From: Shigella phage PSD9
DNA length: 64,000 nucleotides
Sequence record: MZ561532
Reading direction: 5' to 3' (one strand)
This document shows positions 30,515 through 50,039 of the stretch, in pieces. Position 1 is the stretch's first letter; each line of letters starts with the position of its first letter. The position numbers were made by a program, and so were the translations under genes. Below the pieces are notes generated by a model. That model was given only the letters and a program-made list of their open reading frames with translations, had not been told where the DNA came from and made no database searches.

Positions 30515-30534
30515 GGGAAGACCGAAGTCTTCCC
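30515..30534 (-). terminator. intrinsic terminator downstream of gene 32
   Basis: GGGAAGAC-UUCG-GUCUUCCC followed by UUUUUGG on minus RNA. Confidence 0.6.
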
Positions 30535-30550
30535 ATTATAAATCAATAAC

Positions 30551-31515: not shown

Positions 31516-31521
31516 GTTAGT

Positions 31522-31546
31522 ATATTAACACAGTTGGTTTGAAGCA
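31522..31546 (-). promoter_or_regulatory. MotA-dependent middle promoter candidate (TGCTTCA-N12-TAATAT)
   Basis: MotA-box-like TGCTTCA abutting gene 59 stop, 12 nt from -10 TAATAT. Confidence 0.45.
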
Positions 31547-32749: not shown

Positions 32750-32759
32750 TATATTCACC

Positions 32760-33707
32760 TTAATAAAAATCAGCTACTGTAGCGGTTAGTTTAGACAAAC
32801 CAGATTTAACGAAATAAGGATAGACTTTAGATTTCGAAGGTTTGTTATACGTATTATATCTTTCAGTAATTAAAGCAACAATATCATCTGGAATAAAGTC
32901 CATATCAATTAAGATTTGGTTTTCACAGAAACGTTCATATTGTTCTTCAGTAAGAAGTGTTTTAATTATATCATGGTCGTAATAATTCAGAGCAATCGCT
33001 TCAAGTTCCTTGGCACGAGTGCTAGGAGTACGTTCGCCTTCAACCATCGTCAACCAGTAATCACCACGAACTTTAATACTCGCGACGTTATCCTTGCGGT
33101 CGCCTTTAACAACCTTAGTTACACAATCTAATAATGAATCGCCAGATTTTGTTTTGACGAATTTTTTCTGCATTGGAGACCATTGTTTTACCCCAGGGAA
33201 TTTATGGAGTTGAGTAAAGTCGCCATCCGAAGAACCAATCATAACTGGATGGCCTAAAGCCGTGAGGATTCGGGTTAAAACAGCAATATGGTCATCGGCC
33301 TCGACAGTATCGATATTCATAACAATATAAGGCATGTTTTGTTCCAGTTCATCAACAATAATATGCATTGCTGTGAATAAACCTTCCCAATCAAATAATG
33401 ATTCTTCACGAGCCTTAGCACGGTTTTTCTTATAATAAGGTGAATAGCGACGACGCCAATAACCTGATTTAGAGTTGTCAACACAAATAACCAGTTGGCT
33501 GTAACCTTGTTTTTTAAAGTCTTTAATATTTTTCTTAATTGAATTCAGCACGAGGTGCCGAAGCATTGCTGTAGTTACTTTAGGAAATCCAGCATTCTCA
33601 CCAAACTCTTGGAAAGCTGCAGCCATAATGATTTGGCTGAAATCTAGGAGTAAAAATCCATCTTTTTGTTGGTCTTCTTCGGGAAGTAAAAAATCTAAAT
33701 CGTTCAT
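32760..33707 (-). CDS. rnh: RNase H / 5'-3' flap exonuclease
   Basis: Strong similarity to T4 RNase H (DFSQI..., ICVDNSKSGYWRR, SSDGDFTQLHK); start set at MNDLDFLL downstream of promoter. Confidence 0.85.
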   Translation of the reverse strand: MNDLDFLLPEEDQQKDGFLLLDFSQIIMAAAFQEFGENAGFPKVTTAMLRHLVLNSIKKNIKDFKKQGYSQLVICVDNSKSGYWRRRYSPYYKKNRAKAREESLFDWEGLFTAMHIIVDELEQNMPYIVMNIDTVEADDHIAVLTRILTALGHPVMIGSSDGDFTQLHKFPGVKQWSPMQKKFVKTKSGDSLLDCVTKVVKGDRKDNVASIKVRGDYWLTMVEGERTPSTRAKELEAIALNYYDHDIIKTLLTEEQYERFCENQILIDMDFIPDDIVALITERYNTYNKPSKSKVYPYFVKSGLSKLTATVADFY

Positions 33708-33738
33708 ATGAACCTCTGTCCAATTAGTGTAGAGGTTC

Positions 33739-33767
33739 ATTATATCACGACCCTAGAAGAAGTAAAC
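33739..33767 (-). promoter_or_regulatory. T4-type early promoter (GTTTAC-N17-TATAAT) for rnh
   Basis: Consensus hexamers; -10 overlaps the track's upstream ATG, supporting the downstream start. Confidence 0.5.
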
Positions 33768-33774
33768 ACTTTGC

Positions 33775-33782
33775 TATAAATA
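33775..33782 (+). promoter_or_regulatory. late promoter TATAAATA for gene 34
   Basis: Exact TATAAATA 32 nt upstream of gene 34 ATG; divergent from the rnh promoter. Confidence 0.65.
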
Positions 33783-33814
33783 GTTCTATACCCTGAAAAC
33801 GAAAAGGAAATAAA

Positions 33815-36800: not shown

Positions 36801-37864
36801 CTCAAGGTGATACTTTAGCTCCGATTTTTGCCGAGATAAATTCGACCCCAGATGCCAAGTTCCATCCTATTGTTAAACAACGTTTAGGGCAAGGTACGTT
36901 CTCTTTAGGCACTGTAAATGATGGAACTCGTGATTTTAAAATACATTATCTTCCATCGCCGGGTTCTTTAGAATCTTTCTACTGGACCTTTAATACGACT
37001 GGTGACTTTGCTGTTAATAGTGGTTCCATTAGTATTTCTAAGAATGCTAATATCACAGGTATAACCACTTCTAACGGTGTTTCTACAACTACATTAAATG
37101 CTTCTGCTCTGTCTTCATTACAAAACGTAACTACTTCAGGTACTATCGTTTCCACCGGACAGGTATCGGCAAATAATGGTTTGGTTGCTCAAAAATACGT
37201 CCGCTCTGTTGGTGTTAAACCTACATTAGCATCGCAGGCCCCTACTGCAGAAACAGTTGGCTTCTGGTCTGTCGATATCAATGATTCGGCTACATTTAAC
37301 CTATTCCCAGGTTATTGGACGATGAAAACTAAACGTCAGGTTAATATTGATACGGTCCAAACTAAACCTGCCGGTGTTTCTGATGAGATATGGAATGCTT
37401 CTGGTTGGTTGACGGAAACGGGTGCATTTAGTTCTCCGGCTATTCGTTATCGTAACGAAGACGGTAGTTTTGGTGACGAAGTTCTCAGTACGACGGGTCA
37501 GAAATTACGTGGTACTTGGTTTGATTATTCTGTTCGTGATAAGGAAGTTAAATATCCTGGTACGTTAACTCAGTTTGGTAATACATTGGATTCATGTTAT
37601 CAGGATTGGGTGTGCTATCCTACAGGACTGAATGGTGGTACTATTCGTTATACACGTACCTGGCAGAAAAATAAAAACGCATGGACTACGTTCTCTATGG
37701 TCTATACGGCAGATAACCCTCCTTCTGCGGAAGAGGTTGGTGCATTGCCTGCTGATAACGCCACAATGGGTAACATTACAATCCTTGATTGGTTACGTAT
37801 TGGTAACGTTCGTATTATTCCTGACCCGGTCACTAAATCCGTTAAGTTTGAGTGGATTGAATAA
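33815..37864 (+). CDS. 34: long tail fibre proximal subunit
   Basis: 1349 aa; extensive similarity to T4 gp34 including TETRRGVAEIATQ repeats and C-terminal ...NVRIIPDPVTKSVKFEWIE. Confidence 0.85.
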   Translation: MADILKPAFRATSGLDAAGEKVINVAKADYNVLDDGVNVEFFIDENTIQAYDETRGYKKGFAVIHDQRIWVAQRDIDAPAGTFVPGYWTATRTDPKWITVASPTRQLASGEYIAVDSAASFTTFTLPPNPTDGDTIVIKDIGGRVGYNEIKLQSSSAPGGGNQKIVRFGNQFTETLITKPFSYNMIIFANRLWHFWEAANEERGIRVEPNTAQFQSQAGDNVLRRYTSGAVIKFTLPKYANQGDIIKTVDIDGLGSKFHLIVETFDASSSLGKPGQHSMEFRTSGDGFFVYNSTEKLWYVWDGDRQTRLRVIRDDVELLANESVIVFGPNNTTPQTINITLPTGVAQGDVVKIALNYLRKAQTVNIKAAVGDKIASSVQLLQFPKRSEYPPETEWVLNDVLTFNGNISYTPVIELSYIEDTTTGGKYWVVAQNVPTIERVDSKDDLTRARLGVIALASQTQANVDHENNPEKELAITPQTLANRVATESRRGIARIATTAQVNQDTTFAFQDDLIISPKKLNERTATETRRGVAEIATQVETNTGTDDTTIITPKKLQARQGSESLSGIVTYTSTVGTAPATARDTVGTNVYNKNVGNLVISPKALDQYKATQVQQGTVYLSNQSEVNAGQSASGFANSAVSPETLHARVALDTRTGLIEIATQQETDTGTDYTRAVTPKTLNDRKATEGLTGIARIATQVEFDAGTLDNVISTPLKIKTRFNDTARTSVSAASGLVESGTLWNHYTLDIREANETQRGTARLATQTEVNVGTDDKTIITPLKLHSKKSTESSEGIIRVATNTETTAGTSKVLAVSPSGLKYVVQTETTWEATALRRGFVKLTEGALTHSGNKVTGSGVKFNSGTGLYENDDTVLNAANYPKTGYAVSSYEMNKTLQNFLPINATAVNSEKLDGLDSLQFIRRDVDQTVNGSLTLTKQLNLAAPLVSSSTANITGNTILGSLEVTGNSTFKNDVSVSSGKSIKFVGPQSGAGTWNSQGDTLAPIFAEINSTPDAKFHPIVKQRLGQGTFSLGTVNDGTRDFKIHYLPSPGSLESFYWTFNTTGDFAVNSGSISISKNANITGITTSNGVSTTTLNASALSSLQNVTTSGTIVSTGQVSANNGLVAQKYVRSVGVKPTLASQAPTAETVGFWSVDINDSATFNLFPGYWTMKTKRQVNIDTVQTKPAGVSDEIWNASGWLTETGAFSSPAIRYRNEDGSFGDEVLSTTGQKLRGTWFDYSVRDKEVKYPGTLTQFGNTLDSCYQDWVCYPTGLNGGTIRYTRTWQKNKNAWTTFSMVYTADNPPSAEEVGALPADNATMGNITILDWLRIGNVRIIPDPVTKSVKFEWIE

Positions 37865-37872
37865 GAGGTATT

Positions 37873-38994
37873 ATGGAAAGATTTATGGCAGAATTTGGAC
37901 AAGGATATGTCCAGGTTCCTACATTATCTGAAAACAATGCTGTAAGGTATAAACTTAGTATAGCGGGTAGTTGTACTAAGTCTACCACAAAAGCATATGT
38001 TAAATTTCAAGATGGGAACTTCGGTTCCCAGAATTTTCAAAATGGATTAAACCTTATAGAAATTGATGTTAGTGCTGAACCTAAAATAGTGGCTAACAAA
38101 ACTTATAGTTTTACAAAAGATTTTGATGTTATTTCTGAAGCTTTTATAACGTATATAAATTCTATACCGGCCAATAGAATAGTTTGTTTAGTATCTTCTG
38201 GTAGATTAAATGCTTCACAAAAACTTATTGATTGGTTCCGTGCAGCAGGAAGTACCGCATTCCCGACTAAATGGTTAATAGACCGGTTTGAGCCATCTTA
38301 TTCTGCATTTTATGTTTCAGGAAGGAATGCCATAGTAATGGAACATGTGCTTTATAATGATGGGGTATTGGTCGAAGATGTTTCTACCCCATTAGAAGTG
38401 GTATTTGATGATATCAGCGACGTTGGTGGTACAGGATATCCTGTCAGAATTGTTGAAGACGAAAGCACTTATCTAAGCAATGATGGAGATGAAATTAAGC
38501 GATTTCCTACCGAATCTCCTACCACCCCATTAACAGATTATAATATGAAACCAGGTGAATTCTTTTACCTTAAGTTTCAATTAATGCGCGACCAAGCTTT
38601 AAAAGACGTAGGGACTTCTCAGATGTCTGTTAGATTTTTTAATGCCTCAGGTGCTTTAACTGGGACAGTTAATATGGACGTTCCTTCCAACGTTCCTGCT
38701 GGCGCATGGATGACATTTGAACGGGTAGTAATGGTTCCTGAAGGTACTACAGACTTTACTCTTTATGCCAGAAAAACAGCTTCGGCTGGCCAAGGCGGAG
38801 TTCGAAATGTTATGTTCGGTGAGATATCTGAATCAGAACCTCAGCCAAAACCTGCTGAATTTGGTGTTAACGGTATTCGTATGAACTTTGGTACGGAAAC
38901 TAAAAATATGGGTACTACCATAGCCCAGCTATATGATAAAACAGGCACTAAACCTGGTCAGGTTTGGGTCGCTGAATTTAGAGAAAAATATTAA
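37873..38994 (+). CDS. 35: long tail fibre hinge protein
   Basis: 373 aa (T4 gp35 372 aa), between 34 and 36. Confidence 0.75.
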   Translation: MERFMAEFGQGYVQVPTLSENNAVRYKLSIAGSCTKSTTKAYVKFQDGNFGSQNFQNGLNLIEIDVSAEPKIVANKTYSFTKDFDVISEAFITYINSIPANRIVCLVSSGRLNASQKLIDWFRAAGSTAFPTKWLIDRFEPSYSAFYVSGRNAIVMEHVLYNDGVLVEDVSTPLEVVFDDISDVGGTGYPVRIVEDESTYLSNDGDEIKRFPTESPTTPLTDYNMKPGEFFYLKFQLMRDQALKDVGTSQMSVRFFNASGALTGTVNMDVPSNVPAGAWMTFERVVMVPEGTTDFTLYARKTASAGQGGVRNVMFGEISESEPQPKPAEFGVNGIRMNFGTETKNMGTTIAQLYDKTGTKPGQVWVAEFREKY

Positions 38995-39010
38995 GGAACC
39001 TTCGGGTTCC
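38995..39010 (+). terminator. intrinsic terminator after gene 35
   Basis: GGAACC-UUCG-GGUUCC followed by UUUUUCGUUUUC. Confidence 0.6.
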
Positions 39011-39028
39011 TTTTTCGTTTTCTACGGC

Positions 39029-39036
39029 CATAAATA
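39029..39036 (+). promoter_or_regulatory. candidate late promoter (CATAAATA) for genes 36-38
   Basis: CATAAATATATAAAA 34 nt upstream of gene 36 ATG; one mismatch to TATAAATA. Confidence 0.35.
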
Positions 39037-39069
39037 TATAAAAGGCTATAACTCCCAAAGGAAACTCAA

Positions 39070-39717
39070 ATGGCAGATTTAAAATTAGGTTCTACAGCAG
39101 GAGGTTCAGTATTATGGCACCAAGGTAATTTTCCCTTAACGCCTGTATCAAATGACCTTCTTTACAAAACATATAAAGTTTATACCGAATATAATAAACC
39201 GCAAGCCACTGATAACGACTTTGTTTCAAAAGCAAATGGTGGTAATTATAAGAATAACGTGTATTTTGAAAAAGGGCTGACCTTTAATGATACTAATGGA
39301 TACGGTATTAAATTAGGAACAAGAACTGGTGGAGCACCGTTCACGGCTTCTTTCCGTATTAAAGGCGCTTTTGGATATGAAACGGAAGATGGTACTCCGT
39401 TCATGATATTCAACCCAAGTACAGTAGTAGGTGCTAAACGCCTCACAGTAATGGGTGATTCATTATTCAGACAAGTATATGACGAATCAGGTCGTGTATT
39501 CAGTCCAGGCAACACCCCTACTAAAGCTCAAGTAGGATTATCGTTAGTAGATAACGCAAAACAGGTCCAAATAAATAATACTAACATGCAAACAATGACC
39601 GGAGTACTTGCTGCTCCTAACTTTATTTCGCTGAATCCGGCCTCTGACGCAGGACACGTTCCTCGTTTTGACCAGATTGTTATTAAAGATTCTATTCAAG
39701 ATTTTGGTTATTATTAA
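39070..39717 (+). CDS. 36: long tail fibre distal connector
   Basis: 215 aa (T4 gp36 about 221 aa), directly upstream of 37. Confidence 0.75.
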   Translation: MADLKLGSTAGGSVLWHQGNFPLTPVSNDLLYKTYKVYTEYNKPQATDNDFVSKANGGNYKNNVYFEKGLTFNDTNGYGIKLGTRTGGAPFTASFRIKGAFGYETEDGTPFMIFNPSTVVGAKRLTVMGDSLFRQVYDESGRVFSPGNTPTKAQVGLSLVDNAKQVQINNTNMQTMTGVLAAPNFISLNPASDAGHVPRFDQIVIKDSIQDFGYY

Positions 39718-39725
39718 GAGGCATT

Positions 39726-42700
39726 ATGGCTACTTTAAAGCAAATCCAATTTAAAAGAAGTAAAGTAGCCGGTGTACGTCCGACACCGGCCCAGTTGGCT
39801 GAAGGTGAACTGGCTATTAACTTAAAGGACCGATTACTTTTTACTAAAGACGATACTGGAGCGATTATCGACCTTGGCTTTGCTAAAGGTGGTAATATTG
39901 ACGGTAATGTTATTCATAACGGTAACTACAACCAGACTGGCGATTACACCCTAAATGGTACCTTTACCCAAACAGGTGATTTTAATTTAACCGGTATTGC
40001 TCGTGTAACTCGTGACATTATTGCCGCTGGCCAGATAATGACCGAAGGTGGCGAGCTTATTTCTAAGAGTGCATCGACGTCCCATTTGAGATTTTTTGAC
40101 GGCGCATCCCGCGAACGTGGCATTATCTTTTCGCCAAATAATGCTGGAGCGACCACTCAGGTAGTTAATATTCGCGTACAAGATTATGCGACAAGTGGCG
40201 AAAGCACTTATGCATTTTCAGGCAATGGACAATTTACTTCACCTGAAGTATCAGCATTGAAATCTATTTCGTCTCCACAAATTCTGACCGATAAAGTTAT
40301 TACAAACGGGAAGAAGACAGGCGATTATGATATCTATTCATTGGCAAATAATAATTCTAACACAGATAAAAATAATTTACGCGTTGTGCGTACTGATCCA
40401 GCGGCCGCAATGCTCCATGAAATTTGTGAAAATAACGGTATCAGTTGGTATTCCGGTTCAACCCCTACTGATTATATGATATCTTTTGCTTATTCCGGTG
40501 GTTTTCAAGCTGGACATTCGATTGCAGTAGGTATGGAATCAGGGCCTATGACCTATTCAACCTTAGGTAAAGGTTCTATTGTTTTAGGTGATAATGACAC
40601 TGGGCTAAAATGGCATCAGGATGGATATTATTTCAGCGTTAATAACGGCACAAGAACTTTCCTGTACGGCCCTGCAGAAACCACCAGTCTTAGAAAAATG
40701 GTTATGGGTTATTCTGTAAACGGTACCGATTTAACTACTCCTCCAACTGAAAACTATGCTTTGGCTACTGTTGTTACTTACCATGATAATAACGCATTTG
40801 GTGATGGTCAAACTCTTTTAGGTTATTACCAAGGTGGCAATTATCACCACTATTTCCGCGGTAAAGGTACTACAAACGTTAACACCGCTGGTGGTTTGTT
40901 AGTTACTCCTGGTAATATTGATGTTGTTGGTGGTTCTGTTAATATCGATGGTCGTAATAATGCTTCTACGCTGATGTTTAGAGGTAACACGACCGGAAGT
41001 AGTTCAGTTGATAATATGACTATCGCCGTTTGGGGTAATACCTTTACTAATGTTGATGGCGACCGTAAAAACGTAATGGAAATATCTGATGCCACTAGCT
41101 GGATTCAATATTATCAACGACTGTCTTCAGGTGCTATTCAAAGCCATTTAAATGGAACTTTGGGTGTAAACGAAAGTATAAATGTCGGCCAGGAAGTTAA
41201 CGTCTCCGGCACTATTGCTGGTAATGCGGTCAATGCTCTTAGAATTTGGAACGACGATTACGCCGCTATTTTCCGCCGTTCAGAAAACAGTCTTCATATT
41301 ATTCCTACCGCCTTTGGCGAAGGTAAAACTGGTGATATTGGTCCACTTCGCCCGTTTCGTATGGACCTTGATACAGGTAAAGTAAGTATTCCTAATATGG
41401 ATACTACTAATTTGACTATGAACCCAAATGGCTATATTAAATTTGCTGGTCATGGCTCAGGCGCTGGTGGTTATGATATTCAGTATGCACAAGCAGCTCC
41501 TGTTTTCCAGGAAATCGATGATGATGCTGTAAGTAAATATTATCCTATTGTTAAACAGAAGTTTTTAAACAGTAAAGCTGTTTGGTCTTTAGGTACTGAA
41601 ATTAATTCCGGGGATTTTGTTTTACACCATATGAAAGAAGATGGAACACAATCTCATCTCTCAAGATTTAATGCTGACGGTACAGTTAACTTCCCGGATA
41701 GCGTTAAAGTCGGTGGCGATAAAGCTACTATCGGCAAAGATGGTAACATCTGGTCTGATATCTGGAAAACGTTTACTTCTGCCGGTGACGTAACCAATCT
41801 TCTTGGTGCTGTCTATAGCCGGGTTTCTAAAGAAGGCGATACGTTGACAGGCCGCTTAACTCTTAAAACCAACTCAGACGCCGTTGTTATTGATTATCCA
41901 GCAGATGAAGCAGGTTATGTTAAGGGTAAAAAAGGTGGTGTTAATAACTGGTATGTTGGTAATGGCGGTGCTGATAATAACTTATCGTTTTATAGTTTCC
42001 AAACTAATTCAGGCGTTAATATTCATAATAGTGGAGAAATTGGTTTAGCTCCTCAAGGGTCGGATACTTTTTATTTTAATAGGGACCGACTTTATATAAA
42101 GGGTGCACAATGGACAGCTCATCAATCTGGTGCATGGGGTGACCAATGGGGTTTAGAAGCGCCTGTATTTGTGGATTTTGGCAATGTCAGTAATGACTGT
42201 TATTATCCAATTATCAAAGGAAGATCTGGTATTACTAACGAAGGATACATATCGGGTGTAGATTTTGGTATGCGACGCATTACTAATACCTGGGCACAAG
42301 GTATTATTCGTGTAGGTAACCAGGAAAATGGTCAAGACCCACAAGCTATATATGAATTCCACCATAATGGGGTTTTTTATGCTCCAAGCTTACTTAAGAG
42401 CGGCAGAGTATCGGCCGGTGGTGGTGACCCGGCATGGACTGGGCCATGTATTGTTATTGGTGATAATGATACTGGTTTAGTCCATGGCGGTGATGGTCGT
42501 ATTAACATGGTTGCCAATGGTGTGCATATTGCATCTTGGTCTGACTCTTACCATATCCATGAAGGTCTTTGGGATACCAATGGTGCTTTGTGGACTGAAC
42601 ACGGAAGAGCTATTATTTCTTTTGGCCATTTAGTCCAACAAAACGATAGCTATTCAACATTTGTTCGTGACGTTTATGTTCGTTCTGATATTCGTGTTAA

Positions 42701-43019
42701 AAAAGACCTTGTTAAATTTGAAAATGCTTCACAGACACTTTCAAAAATTAACGGTTACACTTATATGCAGAAACGTGGCCTGGATGAAGAAGGTAATCAG
42801 AAATGGGAACCTAATGCCGGTTTAATTGCTCAAGAAGTTCAAGCTATTTTACCGGAATTAGTTGAAGGTGACCCTGATGGTGAAGCTTTACTTCGTTTGA
42901 ACTATAACGGTGTAATTGGTTTAAATACGGCTGCAATCAATGAGCACACTGCAGAAATAGCAGAATTGAAATCAGAGATTGAAGAACTTAAAGCACTAAT
43001 TAAATCATTGTTAAAATAA
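39726..43019 (+). CDS. 37: long tail fibre distal subunit
   Basis: 1097 aa; N-terminus [13 protein letters not shown]..., repeated GDNDTGL motifs, coiled-coil C-terminal tail. Confidence 0.85.
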
Positions 43020-43024
43020 TAAGA

Positions 43025-43038
43025 GGGGCTTCGGCCCC
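43025..43038 (+). other. intercistronic hairpin GGGGC-UUCG-GCCCC between genes 37 and 38
   Basis: No U-tract; followed directly by GGAGG SD of gene 38. Confidence 0.45.
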
Positions 43039-43050
43039 TTGGAGGTTTAT

Positions 43051-43845
43051 ATGGCAGTAGTAGGACCATGGGTTGGAGGGTCTGCAGTAGCTAATACAGG
43101 ACAAAACTGGATGGGTGGCGCTGCCCAGCGATTGAGAATGGGTATTCCGTTTTGGATGAGTAATATGAACGGTCGGTCTGTTGAAGTAATTCATACTTTA
43201 GGTGGGGACCATAACTTTAATGGGCAATGGTTCCGCGACCGTTGCTTTGAAGCCGGTAGTGCGCCTATTGTGTTTAATCTTACAGGTACATTAGTATCTT
43301 ATACCCGTGATGTTCCATTGTTCTTTATGTATGGGGATACTCCAAACGAATATGTTCAATTGAATATTGGTGGTGGGGTTCATATATGGGGCCGAGGTGG
43401 TCAAGGTGGATGGACCCACTCGGGTGGCGATGGCAACGGCCAATGGGGTGGAACTTGTATTGTAAATGATATTGGCGGTCGTTTAAGAATTAATAATGGT
43501 GGGGTTATCTGTGGCGGTGGCGGTGGCGGTGGCGGCATTGCGTGGCGTCCTTACTCAGGTGCTAACTGGCAAGATATCGGTGGTGGTGGTGGACGTCCAT
43601 TTGGTCCTGATGGCGGTGGTAGATTCTCCGGTGGTGGTGCTTCTTATGAAAGCCCTGGCGGTGGATACGATTTGGATAGAGCCCACTCAGGACATGGCGG
43701 TGATGCTGGTGCCTCAGGCCAGAACGCATGGTCTTATGGTGGTAAAGTTCTTAAAGTTGGGGCTGGGGGCGGCGCAGGAGCTGCTGTTGCTGGAAGTTCT
43801 CCTACTTGGCATAATACAGGTGTTATCTACGGTTCCTGGCTATAG
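43051..43845 (+). CDS. 38: tail fibre adhesin gp38, T2-type with glycine-rich motifs
   Basis: 264 aa from ATG (track starts at upstream TTG); [16 protein letters not shown] and [12 protein letters not shown] tracts typical of T2/T6-type adhesins. Confidence 0.75.
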
Positions 43846-43856
43846 TGCATAAGCTC

Positions 43857-43864
43857 TATAAATA
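43857..43864 (+). promoter_or_regulatory. late promoter TATAAATA for holin t
   Basis: Exact TATAAATA 19 nt upstream of AAAGGAG SD and t ATG. Confidence 0.65.
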
Positions 43865-43882
43865 TCTTTAAAGGAGAAAAGT

Positions 43883-44536
43883 ATGGAACCAAAAGTAGGA
43901 TTTTCATTATCAGACCTACTTTTTGGACTTCTTGATAGAATTTTTAAAGATACTTCTTCCGGGAAAGTAGTTTTTTCCCGGGTCCTAGTCGTGATATTAT
44001 TGTTCTTTATGGCATTGGTTTGGTATAAAGGCGAGTATATTCTAAACTTTTATAAAGAGACTACTTATGCCTCTTATACTGAAATGATTAGACAAGACCA
44101 GGACAATAGATTTAAAATTGCGGCTATCGAGCAGCTCCGAATAGTGCATTCTTCTTCAGGCGCAGACTTCACAGCAATATATTCTTTTAGACCAACCAAC
44201 ATGAATTATTTTGTGGATATGGTGGCTTACGAGGGTAAATTACCGGAAACGGTAGACGCAAAAAACACGGGAGGGTTTCCAATTGACAAAACGTCAGTAG
44301 AATATATGGCGGGAGTTAACGGGAACTATTTTGAATCAAGTACCGAAACTGTATTCCTTCCTACAAAGAAGAAAACACAATTCACGTATATGTTTTCATG
44401 CCCGTTTTTTAATTTGGATAACGTCTACGCCGGCTCGATATCGTTGTACTGGTATGATATCAAACCGGATTTAGGATTTCCTAGACTTTCGTCTATGTGC
44501 GGTCAGGCTGGGAGGACATTAGGTCGAACACGTTAG
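43883..44536 (+). CDS. t: holin
   Basis: 217 aa; close match to T4 holin T (SDLLFGLLDR..., single TM, large periplasmic domain). Confidence 0.85.
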   Translation: MEPKVGFSLSDLLFGLLDRIFKDTSSGKVVFSRVLVVILLFFMALVWYKGEYILNFYKETTYASYTEMIRQDQDNRFKIAAIEQLRIVHSSSGADFTAIYSFRPTNMNYFVDMVAYEGKLPETVDAKNTGGFPIDKTSVEYMAGVNGNYFESSTETVFLPTKKKTQFTYMFSCPFFNLDNVYAGSISLYWYDIKPDLGFPRLSSMCGQAGRTLGRTR

Positions 44537-44808
44537 AAATTGGAGGTATACATCATTAAGTAACGGTGTATATCTTCATACCCTTCATTAAATTGCTCAA
44601 TAAGAGTGTCACGTTCATCTTCAGTTAATGACTTAAATAATTTGTTATAAGACAAACCGTTAAGTTCCTTTCCGTGTTCATTACGAATACCTAACTCATT
44701 CAAAAAGGCAATAAACTCATCACGACGTTGCATGATGTCTTCACAATCCGTTTTAATCAAAATGGAAACAATAGTAGCAATTTCGGAAACAATTTCAATT
44801 TTAGTCAT
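44533..44808 (-). CDS. asiA: anti-sigma70 factor AsiA
   Basis: 91 aa; strong similarity to T4 AsiA (...IAFLNELG...EQFNEGYEDIHRYLMMYT...). Confidence 0.8.
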   Translation of the reverse strand: MTKIEIVSEIATIVSILIKTDCEDIMQRRDEFIAFLNELGIRNEHGKELNGLSYNKLFKSLTEDERDTLIEQFNEGYEDIHRYLMMYTSNF

Positions 44809-44849
44809 AATATTCTCTTCAATTCAGTACGTCATTATCTGATAGGGCT

Positions 44850-44878
44850 ATACTAACATATCCTTAGGGATTGTAAAC
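44850..44878 (-). promoter_or_regulatory. T4-type early promoter (GTTTAC-N17-TAGTAT) for asiA
   Basis: Conserved hexamers upstream of asiA. Confidence 0.45.
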
Positions 44879-45022
44879 ATGTTTTTCGTTCTTTTTAACA
44901 TATTCCTGATACATCTCTTCTATTGGTTCCTGGAACTTAAAATCAGCTCCCAGGAATTCCTCAAAGCACTCCTGCTCACGTGTACGCATGCCTGTTACGG
45001 TATTCTCTAAGTTATGACTCAT
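44864..45022 (-). CDS. possible small acidic protein, 52 aa (not in ORF track)
   Basis: ATG preceded by AAGGGTAAAGG; hand translation MSHNLENTVTGMRTREQECFEEFLGADFKFQEPIEEMYQEYVKKNEKHVYNP. Confidence 0.3.
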   Translation of the reverse strand: MSHNLENTVTGMRTREQECFEEFLGADFKFQEPIEEMYQEYVKKNEKHVYNP

Positions 45023-45111
45023 AGCCTTTACCCTTATGTTTCTGTTTACGTTTAGACTCTTTAAGGTTTTTCTTTTTGTCCTTGTGGACCGAAGCCTTAT
45101 TGAAATCGTGC

Positions 45112-45393
45112 TTAGCTACCAGATTGTTCACGTAATTTCCTTAATTGATATTCAAGAGAGCTGATAATTTCTTTATTAGTTGCAATATACATATCACGTA
45201 GGAACGGCTTCAACCCTTCCATATTACCATGGATTGTCTTAGAACTAATATTCTTTATATATTCGTGGTCTAAGGCATCCCAAGCCGGTTGGTTGACATA
45301 AGTTCCCCAGTTGTCTTCCACCATGACATTAAGACGTTTAACATGATTAATATGGGCTTCGATTGCATCAATCTGGAGTTGTTTAAGATTCAT
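45112..45393 (-). CDS. arn: anti-restriction nuclease Arn-like
   Basis: 93 aa (T4 Arn 92 aa), between asiA and motA as in T4; sequence not independently verified. Confidence 0.45.
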   Translation of the reverse strand: MNLKQLQIDAIEAHINHVKRLNVMVEDNWGTYVNQPAWDALDHEYIKNISSKTIHGNMEGLKPFLRDMYIATNKEIISSLEYQLRKLREQSGS

Positions 45394-45881
45394 TAGTAAA
45401 GGTCCTCAGAGTAAAGTTCTTTTTCACTGCCACCACGTTCAATACGAACTTGATTAGCATAAGTCGCAATAATCATTGCTTCTTCGCGAGTCCAATAGTT
45501 TGAATATTGGTCAATAAATCCTTGGTCATCACCACAAACATGGTCTGATACAAGTTTATCACTTACCTGGTCGAGAACTTCAGCCATATCTTTAGAATAA
45601 TGACGAGCACCAGGAATAACCAGAGTCCCACCGTCTTTTAACTTAAAGCGGTTGGCAGCACACACAATCCTGCGCTGATATTTTTCATTGTTGTTCCAAT
45701 AGGCAATCTGCCAACATATTTCAGGAACCTCTTCTAAAACATCCTCTTCTGTATATTCGGTGTAATCACCATATGCCCGTAATTTAGCTGCTAGACTTTC
45801 AGGCGTCTCACGAGAAAGAGCTTTATCTAATAAAGCCATACGGTCTTTAAAGGATAATGCTTTACCTTTTAATAGATTCAT
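45393..45881 (-). CDS. hypothetical protein
   Basis: 162-aa ORF, stop/start coupled to arn. Confidence 0.45.
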
Positions 45882-46216
45882 TTGAAAATCACCTTATGGC
45901 CGTTATCTTTAGCAAATTCTTGAATTTTGGTGGCAGTTTCAATTAAATCACCTTTATAATAGGATGATAATTTAATATTAACTGTTTGGCCCTCGCCATA
46001 CGAAGTTATATTTACCTTTTCAATAAAAATAATCTCAAGAAATCGTAATAACTGCATACCAAATTCAAGATAAACGTTATCAATCTGGAGATCGAGTTGG
46101 TAAATTTTCTTAATACCGCTTACCAAAGCTACACGCTCGTCCCAATCATTACGTTGTTCTTCAATCAATTTAAGGGAATGACCTTCACCGTCCCAGTTAA
46201 GTTCCATCGGAATCAT
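45878..46216 (-). CDS. hypothetical protein
   Basis: Start set at ATG (MIPMELN...) with AAGGA SD and ATGA overlap. Confidence 0.4.
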
Positions 46217-46542
46217 TTGAACCATCCTTTAATACGCTGCCATAAAGATTTCTGTTGAGCTTTATTAACACCAATTGAACGGATAACCGGTTGTGATTCT
46301 TGGTATTCTTTGTAGTCCGCTTTATAGACTTCATAAGCCGCTGGGACAAAGGTGCTGATTGCCGCCATAAAGTTTTTGCGAATTCCCATAGAAGCTTCAG
46401 AACCACCACGGATGATTAAGTATTTACCTGCTTTAATCTTAACAATAGTGCCGAGATAAGCACCGTGGTACCAAATGTCCCAACCTTCTTGAGTAGGTTC
46501 TGCACAACGACGAAGTTCATTAACAATATTAAGCTTGTTCAT
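46213..46542 (-). CDS. hypothetical protein
   Basis: 109-aa basic ORF directly downstream of motA. Confidence 0.45.
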   Translation of the reverse strand: MNKLNIVNELRRCAEPTQEGWDIWYHGAYLGTIVKIKAGKYLIIRGGSEASMGIRKNFMAAISTFVPAAYEVYKADYKEYQESQPVIRSIGVNKAQQKSLWQRIKGWFK

Positions 46543-46560
46543 AATAATTTCCTCAGTCAG

Positions 46561-47193
46561 TTAAATTGCGTTGGTTACGGTTTTGATAACTTCAGATGAT
46601 ACGTTTTGGAAGTCGATATAAGTATTCTTACCACCAGTCTTAATCTTAACATCAAGATTCAAGGAAGTAAACACTTGTTTTTCTTTATCAGTCATATTAT
46701 AACCGAAGATGCGCATCATTCCGTCACGACGGACTTCAATTTGACGAATACCATTGGTACGTTTAGCGAATCGAACTTCAAGGTTGCTACGGTTTTCAGC
46801 AATTTCACGAATCTCGATACGGTCTTCTAATAAAGCTTTAACTTCATCAGCCAGTGTTACCATTTCAGGAGTAACACCACGTGAACTACGCGTTTTACGT
46901 TTTTCCAACATCTCTGGAGCATTTTCAGAAGCGAACAAGTCAGCAGCTTTTTGAACTAGGTCCATTGCTTCACCCGTAGCCACTAAACCATCACCGGATT
47001 TTTCGATGAATCCTTTCTTAATCAATACACCGATGTTAGAGTTAACTACCGCAGCACTAAATTGCTCACTCAGGGCTTCACGGACTTCGCCTGAAGTGAT
47101 GAAGTTATGCTTGATGATATGTACTAAGATCGAAGCAGTTTTTTCATTCAGGACGTCTTCAGAAGCTTTGATGATATAAGTAATTTTAGACAT
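46561..47193 (-). CDS. motA: middle-transcription activator MotA
   Basis: Start set at MSKITYIIKAS matching T4 MotA; 210 aa; track start is an upstream GTG. Confidence 0.85.
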   Translation of the reverse strand: MSKITYIIKASEDVLNEKTASILVHIIKHNFITSGEVREALSEQFSAAVVNSNIGVLIKKGFIEKSGDGLVATGEAMDLVQKAADLFASENAPEMLEKRKTRSSRGVTPEMVTLADEVKALLEDRIEIREIAENRSNLEVRFAKRTNGIRQIEVRRDGMMRIFGYNMTDKEKQVFTSLNLDVKIKTGGKNTYIDFQNVSSEVIKTVTNAI

Positions 47194-47231
47194 TTTGTAT
47201 CTCCATTTCACTCTGTTGTTTTGATAGGTCT

Positions 47232-47260
47232 ATAGTATCATGTTTAAAGCAGATGTAAAC
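47232..47260 (-). promoter_or_regulatory. T4-type early promoter (GTTTAC-N17-TACTAT) for motA
   Basis: Conserved cassette upstream of motA. Confidence 0.5.
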
Positions 47261-47284
47261 TCTTTTTGCACTAAACCCAAAAAA

Positions 47285-47300
47285 GGAACCCGAAGGTTCC
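47285..47300 (-). terminator. intrinsic terminator (GGAACC-UUCG-GGUUCC + U6)
   Basis: Follows stop of the 34-aa ORF; UUUUUUGGG on minus RNA. Confidence 0.55.
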
Positions 47301-47405
47301 TTACTTTTTAAAGTTGGCTGCTATTAAACCTATAGCTAAGCCTGTTGCCAGGCCTAGGATAACAGCAAAGATACAGAGTAACAAGAACTCGACTCCAAGG
47401 CTCAT
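47301..47405 (-). CDS. small membrane peptide, 34 aa (not in ORF track)
   Basis: ATG overlaps gene 52 stop (ATGA); hand translation MSLGVEFLLLCIFAVILGLATGLAIGLIAANFKK; terminator follows. Confidence 0.35.
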   Translation of the reverse strand: MSLGVEFLLLCIFAVILGLATGLAIGLIAANFKK

Positions 47406-48781
47406 AGAGCCTCCAAATCTTTAACATACTCAGTTACAACATCAGTGGTTTTCCAATATTGATGCTCTTCTTTCTTAGCCTTGGCTTCCAAAGCCAGTTT
47501 CTTGGCTTCATCAGAAGTGATATGGAAAATGTTCATGGCCACTAGTTTATCAGCGTATTCGCCATAGACTTTATTACTAGCCAATTCTTCGGTTAAAACC
47601 TTGCGAGTCTTACCTTGGATAACCACTACACCATCAATAACATCTTTGATGAATGTGGCTTTAGCTAATGCCAGTTTGAAAGCTTCTTCGGTTTCGATGA
47701 TTTTACCATCAATACGTTTCTGTACAAAGGTCTTACGGACCTCAACGAAATCACGAATCAGTTCAACTGCATCTTCGTAAACCTTAAGTTTACCTTTCTC
47801 ATTAATGACGGTCAGGTTTTGTGAACGACGTTCGATTAACCCGAAGTCCTTCATGATTTTTTCATGCTTCTTGTTTTCATCAGTAGGCAATTCGTATTCT
47901 TTACGAATCTTAACCTTGAAGCCAAAACCGTTCTCGTCACAGTCATCATCATATGTGATGTACCCTTTGTCTTCCAGAGGGTCTAATACCTTAGCCACAT
48001 ATGTTTCACGGTCATATTTGTATGGGATTTCCGTGATATGCATTTGGGTTCGAGATGTGAACTTATACGTTCCACGAATCTCATAACTACCAGGTTCAAT
48101 CTCAACAACTTCACCACGGAATTCAGGATAAGCCACTTTGGGTTTGGTTACTCGTTTTTCCTGAAGAACTTGCAGTACAGCTTTCTTAACAGAATCAAAA
48201 CTATGAGGAAGAATATTAGTTGCATAACCAGTTGCAATACCGGAAACGCCATTAAGAAGAACAGTAGGAATAATAGGCAGATAAAAAGCCGGTGGCTTAT
48301 GTTCAACATCCGCATGAACCGGAGCATATTCTGTGTCCTTATAAACTTTTGCAAAGTTACTTCCAATACGAGCAAAAATATAACGAGAGGCTGCAGCCTT
48401 TTGAACCAATCGAGAACCGAAGTTACCTTGACCGTCTAACAATGGATAGTTGTTGTTCCATGTGTTAGCCATCAAAGCCCCTGCTTCCTGAGCAGAACCT
48501 TCACCGTGGTGATATCCGAGGTCGGCTACACCACCAGCGATAGAAGCCAGTTTGTGGAATTTTTCTTTATTACCACGAGCCATATCAAGACAACGAGCCA
48601 CTACAAAACGTTGTACAGGTTTAAAGCCATCAATCATATTTGGAATGGCTCGGTTTTCGACAGTATACATTGCATAAGCCAATGCTTCGTTGTCGATAAT
48701 ACTTTTTAAGTCACGACGAGTAAAAGTATCATCGTAAACATCTAAAGCCTGTTTAAAAAGGGTATCAATTACATCAGCCAT
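47402..48781 (-). CDS. 52: DNA topoisomerase II medium subunit
   Basis: 459 aa GyrA-like breakage-reunion domain (...GYATNILPH...); T4 gp52 about 442 aa. Confidence 0.85.
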   Translation of the reverse strand: MADVIDTLFKQALDVYDDTFTRRDLKSIIDNEALAYAMYTVENRAIPNMIDGFKPVQRFVVARCLDMARGNKEKFHKLASIAGGVADLGYHHGEGSAQEAGALMANTWNNNYPLLDGQGNFGSRLVQKAAASRYIFARIGSNFAKVYKDTEYAPVHADVEHKPPAFYLPIIPTVLLNGVSGIATGYATNILPHSFDSVKKAVLQVLQEKRVTKPKVAYPEFRGEVVEIEPGSYEIRGTYKFTSRTQMHITEIPYKYDRETYVAKVLDPLEDKGYITYDDDCDENGFGFKVKIRKEYELPTDENKKHEKIMKDFGLIERRSQNLTVINEKGKLKVYEDAVELIRDFVEVRKTFVQKRIDGKIIETEEAFKLALAKATFIKDVIDGVVVIQGKTRKVLTEELASNKVYGEYADKLVAMNIFHITSDEAKKLALEAKAKKEEHQYWKTTDVVTEYVKDLEAL

Positions 48782-48785
48782 AATT

Positions 48786-48926
48786 TTACCATACTAGTGA
48801 ATGAATAGCCATAATAACATCGGAAATAAAAAGCACAACTTGGATAAGTCCGAACATTACTCCGTAATACAGCGCTACTAATAATGCAGCAAGGGCTAAA
48901 GAGTAGCCCAAGATTTTATTAATCAT
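48786..48926 (-). CDS. possible small membrane peptide, 46 aa
   Basis: Internal ATG (MINKILGYSLALAALLVALYYGVMF...) overlapping stop of upstream ORF; track start is TTG. Confidence 0.3.
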   Translation of the reverse strand: MINKILGYSLALAALLVALYYGVMFGLIQVVLFISDVIMAIHSLVW

Positions 48927-49080
48927 TTTTAATCGTCTTAAGTAAACCGACAAAAGTAGAAAGAACCCAACCAATAAGCAGAAAACTTAAGAATATCGGA
49001 CCAGGGGCCCACACACCTAAAAAGAAGCAAACTGAACAGACTATAGCCATAATAAGTTCAATAAAAACTAGGATAACCAT
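48919..49080 (-). CDS. small two-TM membrane protein, 53 aa (T4 ac position; not in ORF track)
   Basis: GAGGAAAAT SD then ATG; hand translation MVILVFIELIMAIVCSVCFFLGVWAPGPIFLSFLLIGWVLSTFVGLLKTIKND. Confidence 0.4.
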   Translation of the reverse strand: MVILVFIELIMAIVCSVCFFLGVWAPGPIFLSFLLIGWVLSTFVGLLKTIKND

Positions 49081-49090
49081 ATTTTCCTCA

Positions 49091-49168
49091 TTAGCGTCCG
49101 AAGACGCCTTTAGTTTTAAGATTGTTACTATAGAACTGCATCACATGCTCGTTATGGAAATTACTCAT
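49091..49168 (-). CDS. stp: Stp peptide (activator of the host Prr anticodon-nuclease system), 25 aa
   Basis: Hand translation [25 protein letters not shown], near-identical to T4 Stp as recalled; ATG overlaps ndd stop (TAATG). Confidence 0.75.
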
Positions 49169-49617
49169 TAGTAAGCCTGCAGGATGAATTTAAAGTTATC
49201 AGCCAACATACGGTTCATTTCTTCCAGTGTCTGGAGGTCGGAACTATGATTACGAGTGAAAGCCATTGCAATTTGACCCTTACCAAAACCTGTAGTCAGG
49301 GGTTTCATCTTAGAAGCCGGTACATAAAGAACTTCATACACAACACCGTTCACTGCCATAGTGCGAGCTGATTGAGAACGTTTCTTACGAATGTTAGCCA
49401 CGATACCGTCGAGCCCTTGGGCCGAACGTTGATTACCGACATAAAAACGAGCCGCTACGACACGAGAATCAGCGCCGCCTTTAACAAAGAAGTAGAAGCC
49501 TGGCTGAGCAGAGATTTCTTTAGAAGGTTTACCATTTTGGTATTCACCGTTCTTAACATAAGCAACAGTAGTAGCACCAGCAGACAGAACGTTACGGCGA
49601 GTCATATAAGTATTCAT
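49168..49617 (-). CDS. ndd: nucleoid disruption protein Ndd
   Basis: 149 aa; close match to T4 Ndd (...RFYVGNQRS...[13 protein letters not shown]...[12 protein letters not shown]). Confidence 0.8.
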
Positions 49618-49666
49618 ATCAATTTCCTCAGTAGATTAATGTTTTGTTATCCGGTCAACGAGAACC

Positions 49667-49695
49667 ATTATAACATGATTCTCGAGGTTGTAAAC
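49667..49695 (-). promoter_or_regulatory. T4-type early promoter (GTTTAC-N17-TATAAT) for ndd
   Basis: Consensus hexamers; GAGGAAATTG SD precedes ndd. Confidence 0.5.
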
Positions 49696-50039
49696 TATTT
49701 TTGTAGCTGTTCTAAAATAAATCCGCTGGTGTAAAGGCTTGCATTATACAGGCGGTCAAGAGACAACGAATCCAATCCATAAGCTTCGCGAATTGCATTG
49801 ATAACACTTTCATAACTTGTATAATAAACGTCACGATAATCGCGGTCCATAGTCATGCGGAACTTAATAAATTTGTAGAAACCAGTTTCAGGGTCCTGAT
49901 AGAATGCAAATTCTGCAGACGCTAAATTTTTAAGGTTAACAGCTTTTGAGTCACCCGAATAACTTAAATCAAATGTTTCTGACATGCTAATCTGTTTAAA
50001 GAACATAATGTTGCGATTACCAAAAAATAATTTAGACAT
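49695..50039 (-). CDS. hypothetical protein
   Basis: Start set at internal ATG (MSKLFFG...) with AAGGAA SD. Confidence 0.4.
   Translation of the reverse strand: MSKLFFGNRNIMFFKQISMSETFDLSYSGDSKAVNLKNLASAEFAFYQDPETGFYKFIKFRMTMDRDYRDVYYTSYESVINAIREAYGLDSLSLDRLYNASLYTSGFILEQLQK

Follow-up and report, generated by a model that had tools for sequence, protein, structure and literature searches.

Gene 38 of Shigella phage PSD9: a mosaic gene that very probably encodes a T2/S16-type receptor-recognizing adhesin

The gene that follows the long tail fibre gene 37 in the DNA analysed here (64,000 nucleotides of Shigella phage PSD9, sequence record MZ561532, hereafter the window) raises the question of which kind of gp38 it encodes, a receptor-recognizing adhesin of the T2/S16 type or a tail-fibre assembly chaperone of the T4 type, and of how the glycine-rich part of its product has evolved. 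The original prediction, made from the letters alone, had opted for an adhesin of about 264 aa with several poly-Gly motifs, had placed receptor specificity in the segments between these motifs, and had considered that the longest tract, a run of GGT/GGC repeats, could be prone to recombination or slippage.

Gene neighbourhood and family assignment

Gene 38 begins with an ATG at 43051 and reaches the final nucleotide of its stop codon at 43845, giving a product of exactly 264 aa, as had been estimated. This product is 100% identical, across 264 aa, to the PSD9 database entry named "receptor-recognizing protein", and a literature search on phage PSD9 found no publication. The features in and next to the gene are as follows.

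39726..43019, plus strand: gene 37, long tail fibre distal subunit of 1097 aa, the trimeric partner capped by gp38 (PHROG 1699, E = 0)
42687..43016, plus strand: C-terminal intramolecular chaperone domain of gp37, Peptidase_S74 (PF13884, aa 987-1046, 9.4e-12)
43024..43039, plus strand: intergenic GC-rich hairpin (gene 37 to gene 38), core GGGGC-UUCG-GCCCC, loop UUCG (from sequence and folding)
43041..43045, plus strand: Shine-Dalgarno GGAGG of gene 38, 5 nt before the ATG (sequence reading)
43051..43845, plus strand: gene 38, 264 codons and a stop, for the receptor-recognizing adhesin of T2/S16 type (ORF, profiles, homology and model)
43883..44536, plus strand: holin gene t, the downstream neighbour, outside the adhesin (PF11031 Phage_holin_T, 3.6e-66)

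The gene order is 35-36-37-38-t, the order 37-38-t-asiA is common to relatives and T4, and the holin gene t as canonical downstream neighbour fixes the identity of the locus. Directly upstream lies a gene with an S16-like tip: the stop of gp37 is at 43019, ahead of the gp38 start, and its C-terminal 190 aa match 6F45_A (S16 gp37, from the gp37-gp38 tip complex) with 7.8e-43. On the basis of the S74 family, gp37 is predicted to cleave itself after Ser987, which would release 110 aa, and the motif at this point, RS/DIRVKK, aligns with SS/DRRIKK of S16. The intergenic hairpin (-15.1 kcal/mol, z = -1.9) stands immediately 5' of the ribosome-binding site of gp38. A promoter and terminator scan around gene 38 gave nothing beyond shuffle expectation except this hairpin (minus-strand reading), and neither tRNA genes nor Rfam families were found in the window.

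Profile searches consistently assign the product to the adhesin family. PF05268 (GP38) matches over profile positions 1-218 of 218 with 2.4e-63 and 214.3 bits, PF21721 (Gp38_N) with 1.6e-20 and 73.3 bits (cut-off 25 in each case), and PHROG 2056, described as 'tail fiber protein; host specificity', with 6e-101. Among solved structures, phmmer retrieved 9V85 (PP01 gp38) at 4e-69 and, end to end, 6F45_D (S16 gp38) at 1.5e-49. Structural modelling against a known adhesin, which had been suggested as a check, gave an AlphaFold2 model (pLDDT 86.9, pTM 0.80) for which Foldseek returned only these two PDB entries at E < 1, namely 9V85 (E 7e-27, TM 0.85 on target, rmsd 2.7 A) and 6F45_D (E 8e-24, TM 0.78/0.83). 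The predicted model contains all three expected domains, that is, an N-terminal helical attachment domain, a beta-helix and a polyglycine-II sandwich.

The opposite reading, in which gp38 is a T4-type tail-fibre assembly chaperone absent from the virion, draws on the gene name, on the place after gene 37 and before t, and on the records of several relatives, which are annotated as 'distal long tail fiber assembly catalyst', but is almost certainly wrong. In the direct comparison that the original prediction had named as its possible refutation, the non-virion T4 gp38 (NP_049864) is an unrelated sequence of 183 aa rather than 264 aa and without glycine motifs, its best BLASTP match gave E = 3.2 over 27 residues (no similarity), it has no Pfam match at E <= 0.01 and hence neither PF05268 nor PF21721 in common with the protein here, and both the sequence and the fold of the latter fit the solved adhesins.

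No evidence contradicting the adhesin assignment was found. With a probability of roughly 93%, the product of gene 38 is a T2/S16-type gp38 adhesin of the already catalogued kind, a monomer capping the long tail fibre of a Dhakavirus-like T-even phage, and on this point the original prediction holds. By analogy with S16 and T2, gp38 would be positioned at the fibre tip; a monomeric gp38 at the tip, needed for adsorption, has been described for LHE83 (PMC10987938), S16 (PMC6851490) and PP01.

Domain map and glycine motifs

The product can be divided into the following segments, in which the receptor loops were placed by sequence alignment to PP01 gp38 and the PP01 loop definitions, not by model coordinates.

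43051..43170, plus strand: N-terminal attachment domain (aa 1-40, with Trp7, Trp20 and Trp35), which by homology would dock on the gp37 trimer tip (PF21721)
43171..43386, plus strand: beta-helix domain, first part (aa 41-112; AlphaFold strands with pLDDT 83-96, aligning with 9V85 and 6F45)
43387..43779, plus strand: glycine-rich specificity region (aa 113-243, 39% Gly), motifs alternating with hypervariable loops, polyglycine-II sandwich (117 homologues; model; PMC6851490, PMC12892980)
43513..43536, plus strand: Gly8 tract (aa 155-162), aligned equivalent of S16 polyglycine-II helix 3 (151-GGGGGGGG-158)
43543..43575, plus strand: receptor loop B equivalent (aa 165-175), W165 and Y168 lineage-specific, R166 retained (alignment to PP01)
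43612..43626, plus strand: receptor loop C equivalent (aa 188-192, GGGRF), R191 and F192 lineage-specific, D187 adjoining (alignment to PP01)
43669..43683, plus strand: receptor loop D equivalent (aa 207-211, DLDRA), L208, D209 and R210 lineage-specific (alignment to PP01)
43729..43749, plus strand: receptor loop E equivalent (aa 227-233, WSYGGKV), Y229 lineage-specific (alignment to PP01)
43780..43842, plus strand: C-terminal strands (aa 244-264), back to the beta-helix domain (model strands 246-260; conserved AAG.AV.GS.PTW...G.IYG)

The three tryptophans of the attachment domain align with W7, W20 and W36 of S16, whose role in docking to the gp37 trimer is known from that phage (PMC6851490), and among relatives the N-terminal type of gp38 co-varies with the C-terminal type of gp37. 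Glycine makes up 71 of the 264 residues (27%) and reaches 39% in aa 113-243, against 7.2% in a set of 19 further long ORFs from the window. The several poly-Gly motifs that had been announced are present: the tract GGGGGGGG occupies aa 155-162 (nt 43513-43536), and a second glycine-rich motif of 14 residues covers aa 177-190. The longest tract does consist of GGT/GGC repeats, reading GGC GGT GGC GGT GGC GGT GGC GGC. Since Gly runs of at least five are confined to gp38 in all six frames of the 64-kb window, its glycine motifs are not due to chance.

A conservation profile over 117 homologues bears out the expectation that variable segments lie between the glycine motifs. Across 69 sequences no variation occurs at G114, R115, G116, G117, G156-G160, G180, G181, P183, G185 and G203, and conservation is low in the blocks 121-131, 163-176, 186-201, 206-215 and 221-236.

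Homology to the characterized systems suggests how these parts may work together. The gp37 subunits would trimerise with the aid of their own C-terminal S74 chaperone domain, which would then be cut off after Ser987, exposing the gp37 tip, and the N-terminal helical domain of gp38, with its three tryptophans, would plug onto this tip. The remainder of gp38 would form a small beta-helix, two excursions of which would build a three-layer polyglycine-II sandwich from the glycine-rich motifs, with Gly8 as the central helix, a position that would fix the length of the tract. The hypervariable loops at the distal end would touch the outer-membrane protein of the host.

Mosaic history, loop substitutions and receptor

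Sliding identity and a site-by-site table revealed one further feature.

43500..43772, plus strand: recombinant patch, of WG01/MX01 type inside and of E33/PSD2002/LHE83 type on both flanks

The left junction of the patch falls inside 43500-43604, an interval that spans the Gly8 and Gly5 tracts, and the right junction inside 43762-43772 (11 nt), in the last glycine motif. Gene 38 is a mosaic with crossovers in conserved glycine-motif DNA, and the mosaic partners among its Dhakavirus relatives differ along the gene. The junctions agree with published recombination at conserved motifs (PMC3157838) and with an engineered gp38 swap with its crossover 'from HVS2 onwards' (bioRxiv 10.64898/2026.04.02.716166).

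Within the patch, ten residues are specific to this lineage: W165, Y168, D187, R191, F192, L208, D209, R210, S222 and Y229, where the consensus of the clade has Y165, H168, G187, G191, Y192, Y208, G209, N210, A/N222 and D229. The codons unique to this allele comprise 10 non-synonymous and 1 synonymous, compared with 26 and 135 in the relatives pooled, which are not mutually independent (Fisher p = 5e-7), and eight of the ten non-synonymous ones lie in loops B-E (binomial p = 3e-6). Likewise, 15 unique nucleotides are found in 43544-43735 against a single one in the remainder of 42951-45200. The substituted loop positions are near-invariant among 40 cluster representatives of the OmpA clade, the clade residues being held by 35-40 of the 40. 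None of the clade-typical loop sequences IAYRPHS, GPGGGGGYS, Y-x-Y-G-N-A-H-S-G and AW-x-D-GG occurs here, the last reading AWSYGG. A loop cassette would have been exchanged via crossovers in the glycine motifs, followed by about ten amino-acid changes concentrated in loops B-E, and the simplest account of this concentration of post-exchange changes is selection towards an altered receptor or a receptor variant.

As for the receptor itself, clade membership points, on balance, to OmpA. The closest characterized relatives, FL08 (85% identity) and AV119 (83%), are OmpA-dependent, and their OmpA-contact residues R165 and D217 (PMC12032242) are kept here as R166 and D218; by clustering with these two phages and keeping the contact residues, gp38 groups with the type-1 OmpA-recognising Gp38 clade. 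In addition, experiments show the Dhakavirus LHE83 to depend on OmpA, although its adsorption to an ompA deletion strain is still ~50% (PMC10987938). This residual adsorption weakens the OmpA call, as do the near-invariance within the clade of the loop positions changed here and the fact that a single loop substitution can move a gp38 from one porin to another: one HVS3 change produced a switch from OmpF to OmpW in RB51/RB68 (bioRxiv 10.64898/2026.04.02.716166).

A tentative alternative is that the changes in loops B-E have retargeted the adhesin off E. coli-type OmpA, to another outer-membrane protein or to a divergent OmpA such as that of Shigella. Besides the eight loop changes among the ten and the RB51/RB68 precedent, this reading can draw on the position of W165 and Y168 on either side of the OmpA-contacting Arg and on the origin of the identical deposited protein from a phage named for Shigella. 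It is opposed by an identity to OmpA binders that is still 83-93%, by the retention of R166 and D218, and by the tolerance of type-1 OmpA adhesins for many OmpA loop variants (PMC12032242), and no host or receptor data for PSD9 were found in the literature. Taken as a whole, gp38 might then be a natural host-range variant soon after an adaptive burst, one that imported a WG01-type cassette, acquired some ten substitutions and was thereby retuned to a divergent OmpA (e.g., of Shigella) or to another porin, a scenario that we regard with some doubt.

Selection on point mutations is not the only conceivable source of the unique loop residues, which might also derive from a gp38 allele not yet sampled and have entered through recombination. 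The junctions at glycine motifs demonstrate the mosaic nature of the gene, databases are incomplete, and three of the changes (Y to W, Y to L and N to R) require two nucleotide substitutions each. Such an origin is nevertheless improbable, because the sequence between the changed codons matches the WG01 type at nearly every synonymous site, with a single unique synonymous change beside the ten non-synonymous ones, and Gly codons here differ freely from lineage to lineage, so that DNA from a foreign donor would be expected to stand out at synonymous sites; it would also take several separate micro-patches, each covering 1-3 codons. A target of a diversity-generating retroelement was also considered and rejected, as the 13 non-synonymous nucleotide changes span G, C, A and T alike with no adenine bias; with regard to a possible template for such an element, no direct repeats other than the hexamer tract described below were found within 42900-44000.

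If the recombination half of the claim about the GGT/GGC run is upheld by the junctions in glycine-motif DNA, the slippage half finds no support, as the length of Gly8 stays constant in close relatives while the codons vary. Tandem Repeats Finder reports (GTGGCG)x4.2 at 43511-43535 (25 nt, 100% matches), the sole tandem repeat within 42900-44000, and a perfect repeat of this kind could mark a slippage-prone contingency tract whose length or frame variants switch host range. Perfect alternation of two codons recurs in relatives, also with other pairs such as GGT/GGA in O157 typing phage 7 and GGC/GGA in DK-13, and in 29 genes codon i equals codon i+2 in 90 cases where 64.5 are expected (P = 0.0002), which could mean homogenisation of hexamer units; the alternation is equally explained, however, by avoidance of same-codon runs where only two Gly codons are common. 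The block from residue 154 to I163 holds eight residues in all 40 cluster representatives (clade of at least 70%), and the shorter Gly runs seen in five of the 40 are in-register substitutions, e.g., GGGGGGGA. All I-C-prefixed genes, 12 retrieved by BLAST together with the IMG/VR pattern hits, have exactly eight codons with many synonymous differences. The S16 sandwich has this tract as its central, fully hydrogen-bonded helix (PMC6851490), so that indels should be lethal to the fold. A slippage-driven switch is therefore very unlikely, and a slipped-strand contingency locus was rejected, close relatives showing substitutions and synonymous changes only and no repeat-number polymorphism.

The scope of this comparison varies with the data set. 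No variation in Gly-tract length was found among 117 homologues and 29 genes, the register being checkable only in the clade of at least 70%, as the loop after the tract varies in length in more distant homologues. The unbiased evidence on tract length consists of the protein set and the BLAST-retrieved loci (12 genes), whereas the I-C-Gly8 pattern demands at least eight Gly codons, and loci found with it cannot by themselves show that shorter tracts are absent. A scan with this pattern yielded 98 stretches, mostly from unrelated glycine-rich genes, and about 12 further gp38 genes after HMM filtering; the IMG/VR search for related loci gave six loci only, the glycine patterns being degenerate. 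Hits from tblastn end at about aa 146-176 owing to the low-complexity filter, and their identities mostly reflect the N-terminal half. As a side reading, the two-codon alternation in Gly8 may have been selected in the DNA itself, be it because runs of one codon are disfavoured or because hexamers are homogenised.

Relation to known adhesins and significance

The window is Dhakavirus-like. It has a genus-level backbone in common with the Dhakavirus phages PSD2002, vB_EcoM-E33, LQ5, LHE83 and WG01 (~95% over 20 kb), together with the glycine motifs and the gene order; PSD2002 gp38 has 93% amino-acid identity to the protein here, and vB_EcoM-E33 gene 38 has 95% nucleotide identity over nt 80-795. 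None of the five carries any of the ten lineage-specific residues, and LQ5 and LHE83 differ further in having another N-terminal attachment type and another gp37 tip. The type-1 OmpA-binding Gp38 proteins of FL08 and AV119 (Lutz et al. 2025, PMC12032242) have the same loop lengths but differ at the lineage-specific loop residues, and as these phages belong to another genus, Tequatrovirus, horizontal exchange of the adhesin is implied.

Among the solved structures, the receptor-binding domain of PP01 gp38 (9V85; Terasaki et al. 2026, PMC12892980) has 61-62% identity in the aligned domain and the same beta-helix, polyglycine-II sandwich and loops A-E as the model, whereas it binds OmpC and its loops A-E differ in sequence and by indels of 1-2 residues. 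Salmonella phage S16 (6F45; Dunne et al. 2018, PMC6851490) aligns over the full length of gp38 at ~45% identity, and the three tryptophans, the Gly8 helix and the gp37 tip with its S74 chaperone domain are common to both; host and receptor loops are different, and gp37 is longer here (1097 aa).

The family, fold, mechanism and exact sequence of gene 38 are thus already on record, with nothing new in kind. The new detail concerns this allele, namely its 10 non-synonymous against 1 synonymous lineage-specific codon changes, eight of them in loops B-E. Being the main determinant of the outer-membrane protein used by a T-even phage, gp38 adhesins are a prime target for host-range prediction and engineering. 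Gene 38 offers a natural example of two published ideas, that glycine-motif DNA provides crossover points for loop cassettes and that receptor choice can be shifted by a handful of changes in the loops. Should the ten loop changes alter specificity, comparison with E33 and WG01 would give a small, defined set of candidate residues for switching between OmpA variants or porins.

Identity and fold of the gene 38 product

Gene 38 of phage PSD9 runs from an ATG at 43051, preceded by GGAGG at 43041-43045, to a stop codon ending at 43845. It encodes 264 aa, of which 71 (27%) are glycine, in exact agreement with the original prediction of a reading frame of about 264 aa with poly-Gly motifs. Glycine accounts for 39% of aa 113-243; the figure for 19 further long ORFs in the window is 7.2%. 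Outside gp38, none of the reading frames across the 64 kb contains a Gly run of five residues or more.

Gene 38, its glycine motifs and neighbouring genes (window positions)
37873-38994: gp35, upstream of gene 38
39070-39717: gp36, upstream of gene 38
39726-43019: gp37 (1097 aa), directly upstream of gene 38
42684-43016: gp37 C-terminus (aa 987-1097), including the Peptidase_S74 domain (aa 987-1046), an intramolecular chaperone
43051-43845 (+): gene 38
43513-43536 (+): Gly8 tract GGGGGGGG, gp38 aa 155-162
gp38 aa 177-190: second glycine-rich motif, 14 residues
43883-44536: holin t, downstream of gene 38

The protein matches Pfam GP38 (PF05268; 2.4e-63, entire profile covered), Gp38_N (PF21721; 1.6e-20) and PHROG 2056, 'tail fiber protein; host specificity' (6e-101). 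Among solved structures, it matches the receptor-binding domain of PP01 gp38 (9V85; 4e-69) and the gp38 chain of the S16 gp37-gp38 tip complex (6F45_D; 1.5e-49, residues 1 to 264 aligned). An AlphaFold2 model built with 69 homologues as input is confident (mean pLDDT 86.9, pTM 0.80) except in loop A and residues 1-12, which are weak. When this model was compared with the PDB by Foldseek, 9V85 (E 7e-27, rmsd 2.7 A, TM 0.85 on target) and 6F45_D (E 8e-24, TM 0.78/0.83) stood alone, the next match having E = 1.9. The gene product is thus an adhesin-type gp38, a classic representative of a thoroughly studied family, as had been proposed. Homology to the T4-type assembly chaperone, against which the proposal was to be checked, is absent: T4 gp38 (NC_000866, 159649-160200, 183 aa) shows no similarity to the query (best E-value 3.2), ruling out a chaperone identity, and has no Pfam match at E <= 0.01.

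The exact sequence has already been deposited with a correct annotation, 'receptor-recognizing protein [Shigella phage PSD9]' (100% identical); the next nearest protein is that of PSD2002 (93%), and a literature search found no paper mentioning PSD9. Relatives of gp38 occur in 858 phage records. Over positions 30000-50000 the DNA shares about 95% identity with Dhakavirus genomes, among them WG01, E33, QL01 and Bp7. In the records of E33 (L008), JS98 (L018), T6 and wV7, adhesin-type gp38 is labelled 'distal long tail fiber assembly catalyst'; this describes what T4 gp38, an unrelated protein, does, and the label is an annotation carry-over.

In characterized gp38 proteins, the glycine-rich motifs form polyglycine-II helices stacked into a three-layer sandwich, and the receptor is contacted by hypervariable loops at the distal end (PMC6851490; PMC12892980; PMC3157838). 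The Gly8 run of S16 (151-158) constitutes helix 3, which is central and fully hydrogen-bonded (PMC6851490). By homology and this literature, the query motifs would build the same sandwich and its distal loops would contact the receptor. Across 117 homologues, G114-G117, G156-G160, G180-G185 and G203 are invariant or nearly so, and variable blocks separate the conserved motifs, matching the sandwich plan. The variable segments expected between glycine motifs are therefore seen, and by analogy they may set specificity.

Predicted partnership with gp37 and putative expression signals

Over its final 190 aa, gp37 matches the gp37 chain of the S16 complex 6F45 (7.8e-43), and the motif RS|DIRVKK aligns with SS|DRRIKK of S16; by analogy with the S74 family, self-cleavage after Ser987 is predicted to release 110 aa. 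Trp7, Trp20 and Trp35 of gp38 align with the three tryptophans by which S16 gp38 docks onto the gp37 trimer (PMC6851490). Relatives carry one of two versions of the gp38 N-terminal domain (43051-43170), 'GPWVG...' or 'GIPGWIG...', and either version is paired with its own type of gp37 C-terminus (42500-43019; compared with loci L009, L012, L014, L016 and L018), as expected of an attachment interface. Identity of gp37 to each relative shifts by blocks, so that gp37 is mosaic too. About 28 nucleotide positions in gp37 aa ~630-941 (41613-42546) set the window apart from seven relatives, clustering at 41613-41879 and 42371-42546, and some may be alignment artefacts of divergent stretches. Further upstream, gp35 has a marginal Pfam match to ILEI (PF15711; aa 57-130, 28.3 bits against a cut-off of 27).

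The octamer TATAAATA at 43857-43864, which lies 19 nt before holin t begins, is the T4 late-promoter consensus; the absence of such a motif between genes 37 and 38 suggests that gene 38 is co-transcribed with 37. A GC-rich hairpin with a UUCG tetraloop (43024-43039) follows the gp37 stop, precedes the ribosome-binding site of gp38 and has a terminator-like score when read on the minus strand; the stretch holding it (42991-43050) is 98% identical in PSD2002, E33, DK-13 and WG01. Neither tRNA genes nor Rfam families above the gathering threshold were found in window positions 1-64000.

Constant glycine tract and recombination junctions

The Gly8 codons, GGC GGT GGC GGT GGC GGT GGC GGC, form a perfect (GTGGCG)x4.2 repeat, the sole tandem repeat detected by Tandem Repeats Finder in 42900-44000. 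The original prediction held that this DNA could be prone to recombination or slippage. The block from residue 154 to I163 contains 8 residues in all 40 cluster representatives of the clade with at least 70% identity, and the shorter Gly runs in five of them reflect in-register substitutions (e.g., GGGGGGGA); in distant homologues the following loop varies in length, so substitutions and indels are not separable there. Every retrieved gene with the I-C prefix has eight codons despite many synonymous-site differences; the IMG/VR subset was retrieved by a pattern needing at least eight Gly codons and cannot exclude shorter tracts, the unbiased samples being 12 BLAST-retrieved genes and the protein set. 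No sign of slippage in evolution was found among the 40 representatives and BLAST-retrieved genes, and the tract keeps a fixed length, in keeping with what the central helix would demand.

Across 29 non-independent genes, adjacent identical Gly8 codons are depleted (57 vs 75 expected, P = 0.007), while identity at i and i+2 is enriched (90 vs 64.5 expected, P = 0.0002). Two-codon alternation exceeds codon-usage expectation in the Gly8 tract at 43513-43536 and in its counterparts at loci L003, L010, L012, L013, L017, L079 and L087, with pairs differing by allele (GGC/GGT in the query, GGT/GGA in O157 typing phage 7, GGC/GGA in DK-13). The pattern could arise if runs of a single codon are avoided, or if hexamers are homogenised while length is constrained.

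Recombination, by contrast with slippage, is supported. Up to 43499 and from 43773 onwards, gene 38 is of the E33/PSD2002/LHE83/LQ5 type, with dozens of differences from the WG01 type, whereas ~43512-43767 is of the WG01/MX01 type and has dozens of mismatches to PSD2002, LHE83 and LQ5. The right junction falls at 43762-43772 (GCT GGG GGC GGC), in the last glycine motif, and the left one inside 43500-43604, which holds the Gly8 and Gly5 tracts. These junctions agree with published recombinational exchange between conserved motifs (Tetart et al. 1998, as relayed in PMC3157838) and with an engineered gp38 swap with its crossover 'from HVS2 onwards' (bioRxiv 10.64898/2026.04.02.716166). The 'slippery' idea is to be replaced by one in which glycine-motif DNA supplies crossover points and Gly8 length is fixed.

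Loop substitutions and the receptor

Ten query codons specify residues absent from 11 close genes (W165, Y168, D187, R191, F192, L208, D209, R210, S222 and Y229), alongside a single unique synonymous codon. Each relative has the opposite ratio (pooled, 26 non-synonymous vs 135 synonymous; Fisher p = 5e-7). All positions but 222 (N 28, A 11) are near-invariant: 35-40 of the 40 clade representatives share one residue at each (in order, Y, H, G, G, Y, Y, G, N and D). When the query is aligned with PP01 gp38, whose loops are defined crystallographically, eight of the ten map to receptor loops B-E (binomial p = 3e-6). DGR-like mutagenesis is ruled out, as the unique changes lack adenine bias. Of the nucleotide sites unique to the query, 15 fall in 43544-43735 (aa 165-229) vs one in the rest of 42951-45200. 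That synonymous hitch-hikers are lacking argues for point mutation under selection and against import from an unsampled allele.

The nearest characterized adhesins, FL08 (85% identity) and AV119 (83%), are experimentally OmpA-dependent 'type 1' Gp38 proteins whose predicted OmpA-contact residues, R165 and D217 (PMC12032242), are kept in the query as R166 and D218. OmpA likewise serves as receptor for Dhakavirus LHE83 (PMC10987938), whose adhesin shares 91% nucleotide identity over nt 121-795. On these grounds OmpA is the best guess for the query receptor. One loop substitution has sufficed to switch a gp38 from OmpF to OmpW (bioRxiv 10.64898/2026.04.02.716166), so the query's loop changes could, by analogy, have retuned the receptor or even changed it, and for this reason OmpA is given only slightly better than even odds (about 0.55). 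The burst of loop substitutions goes beyond the original prediction and is the sole feature worth a follow-up experiment.
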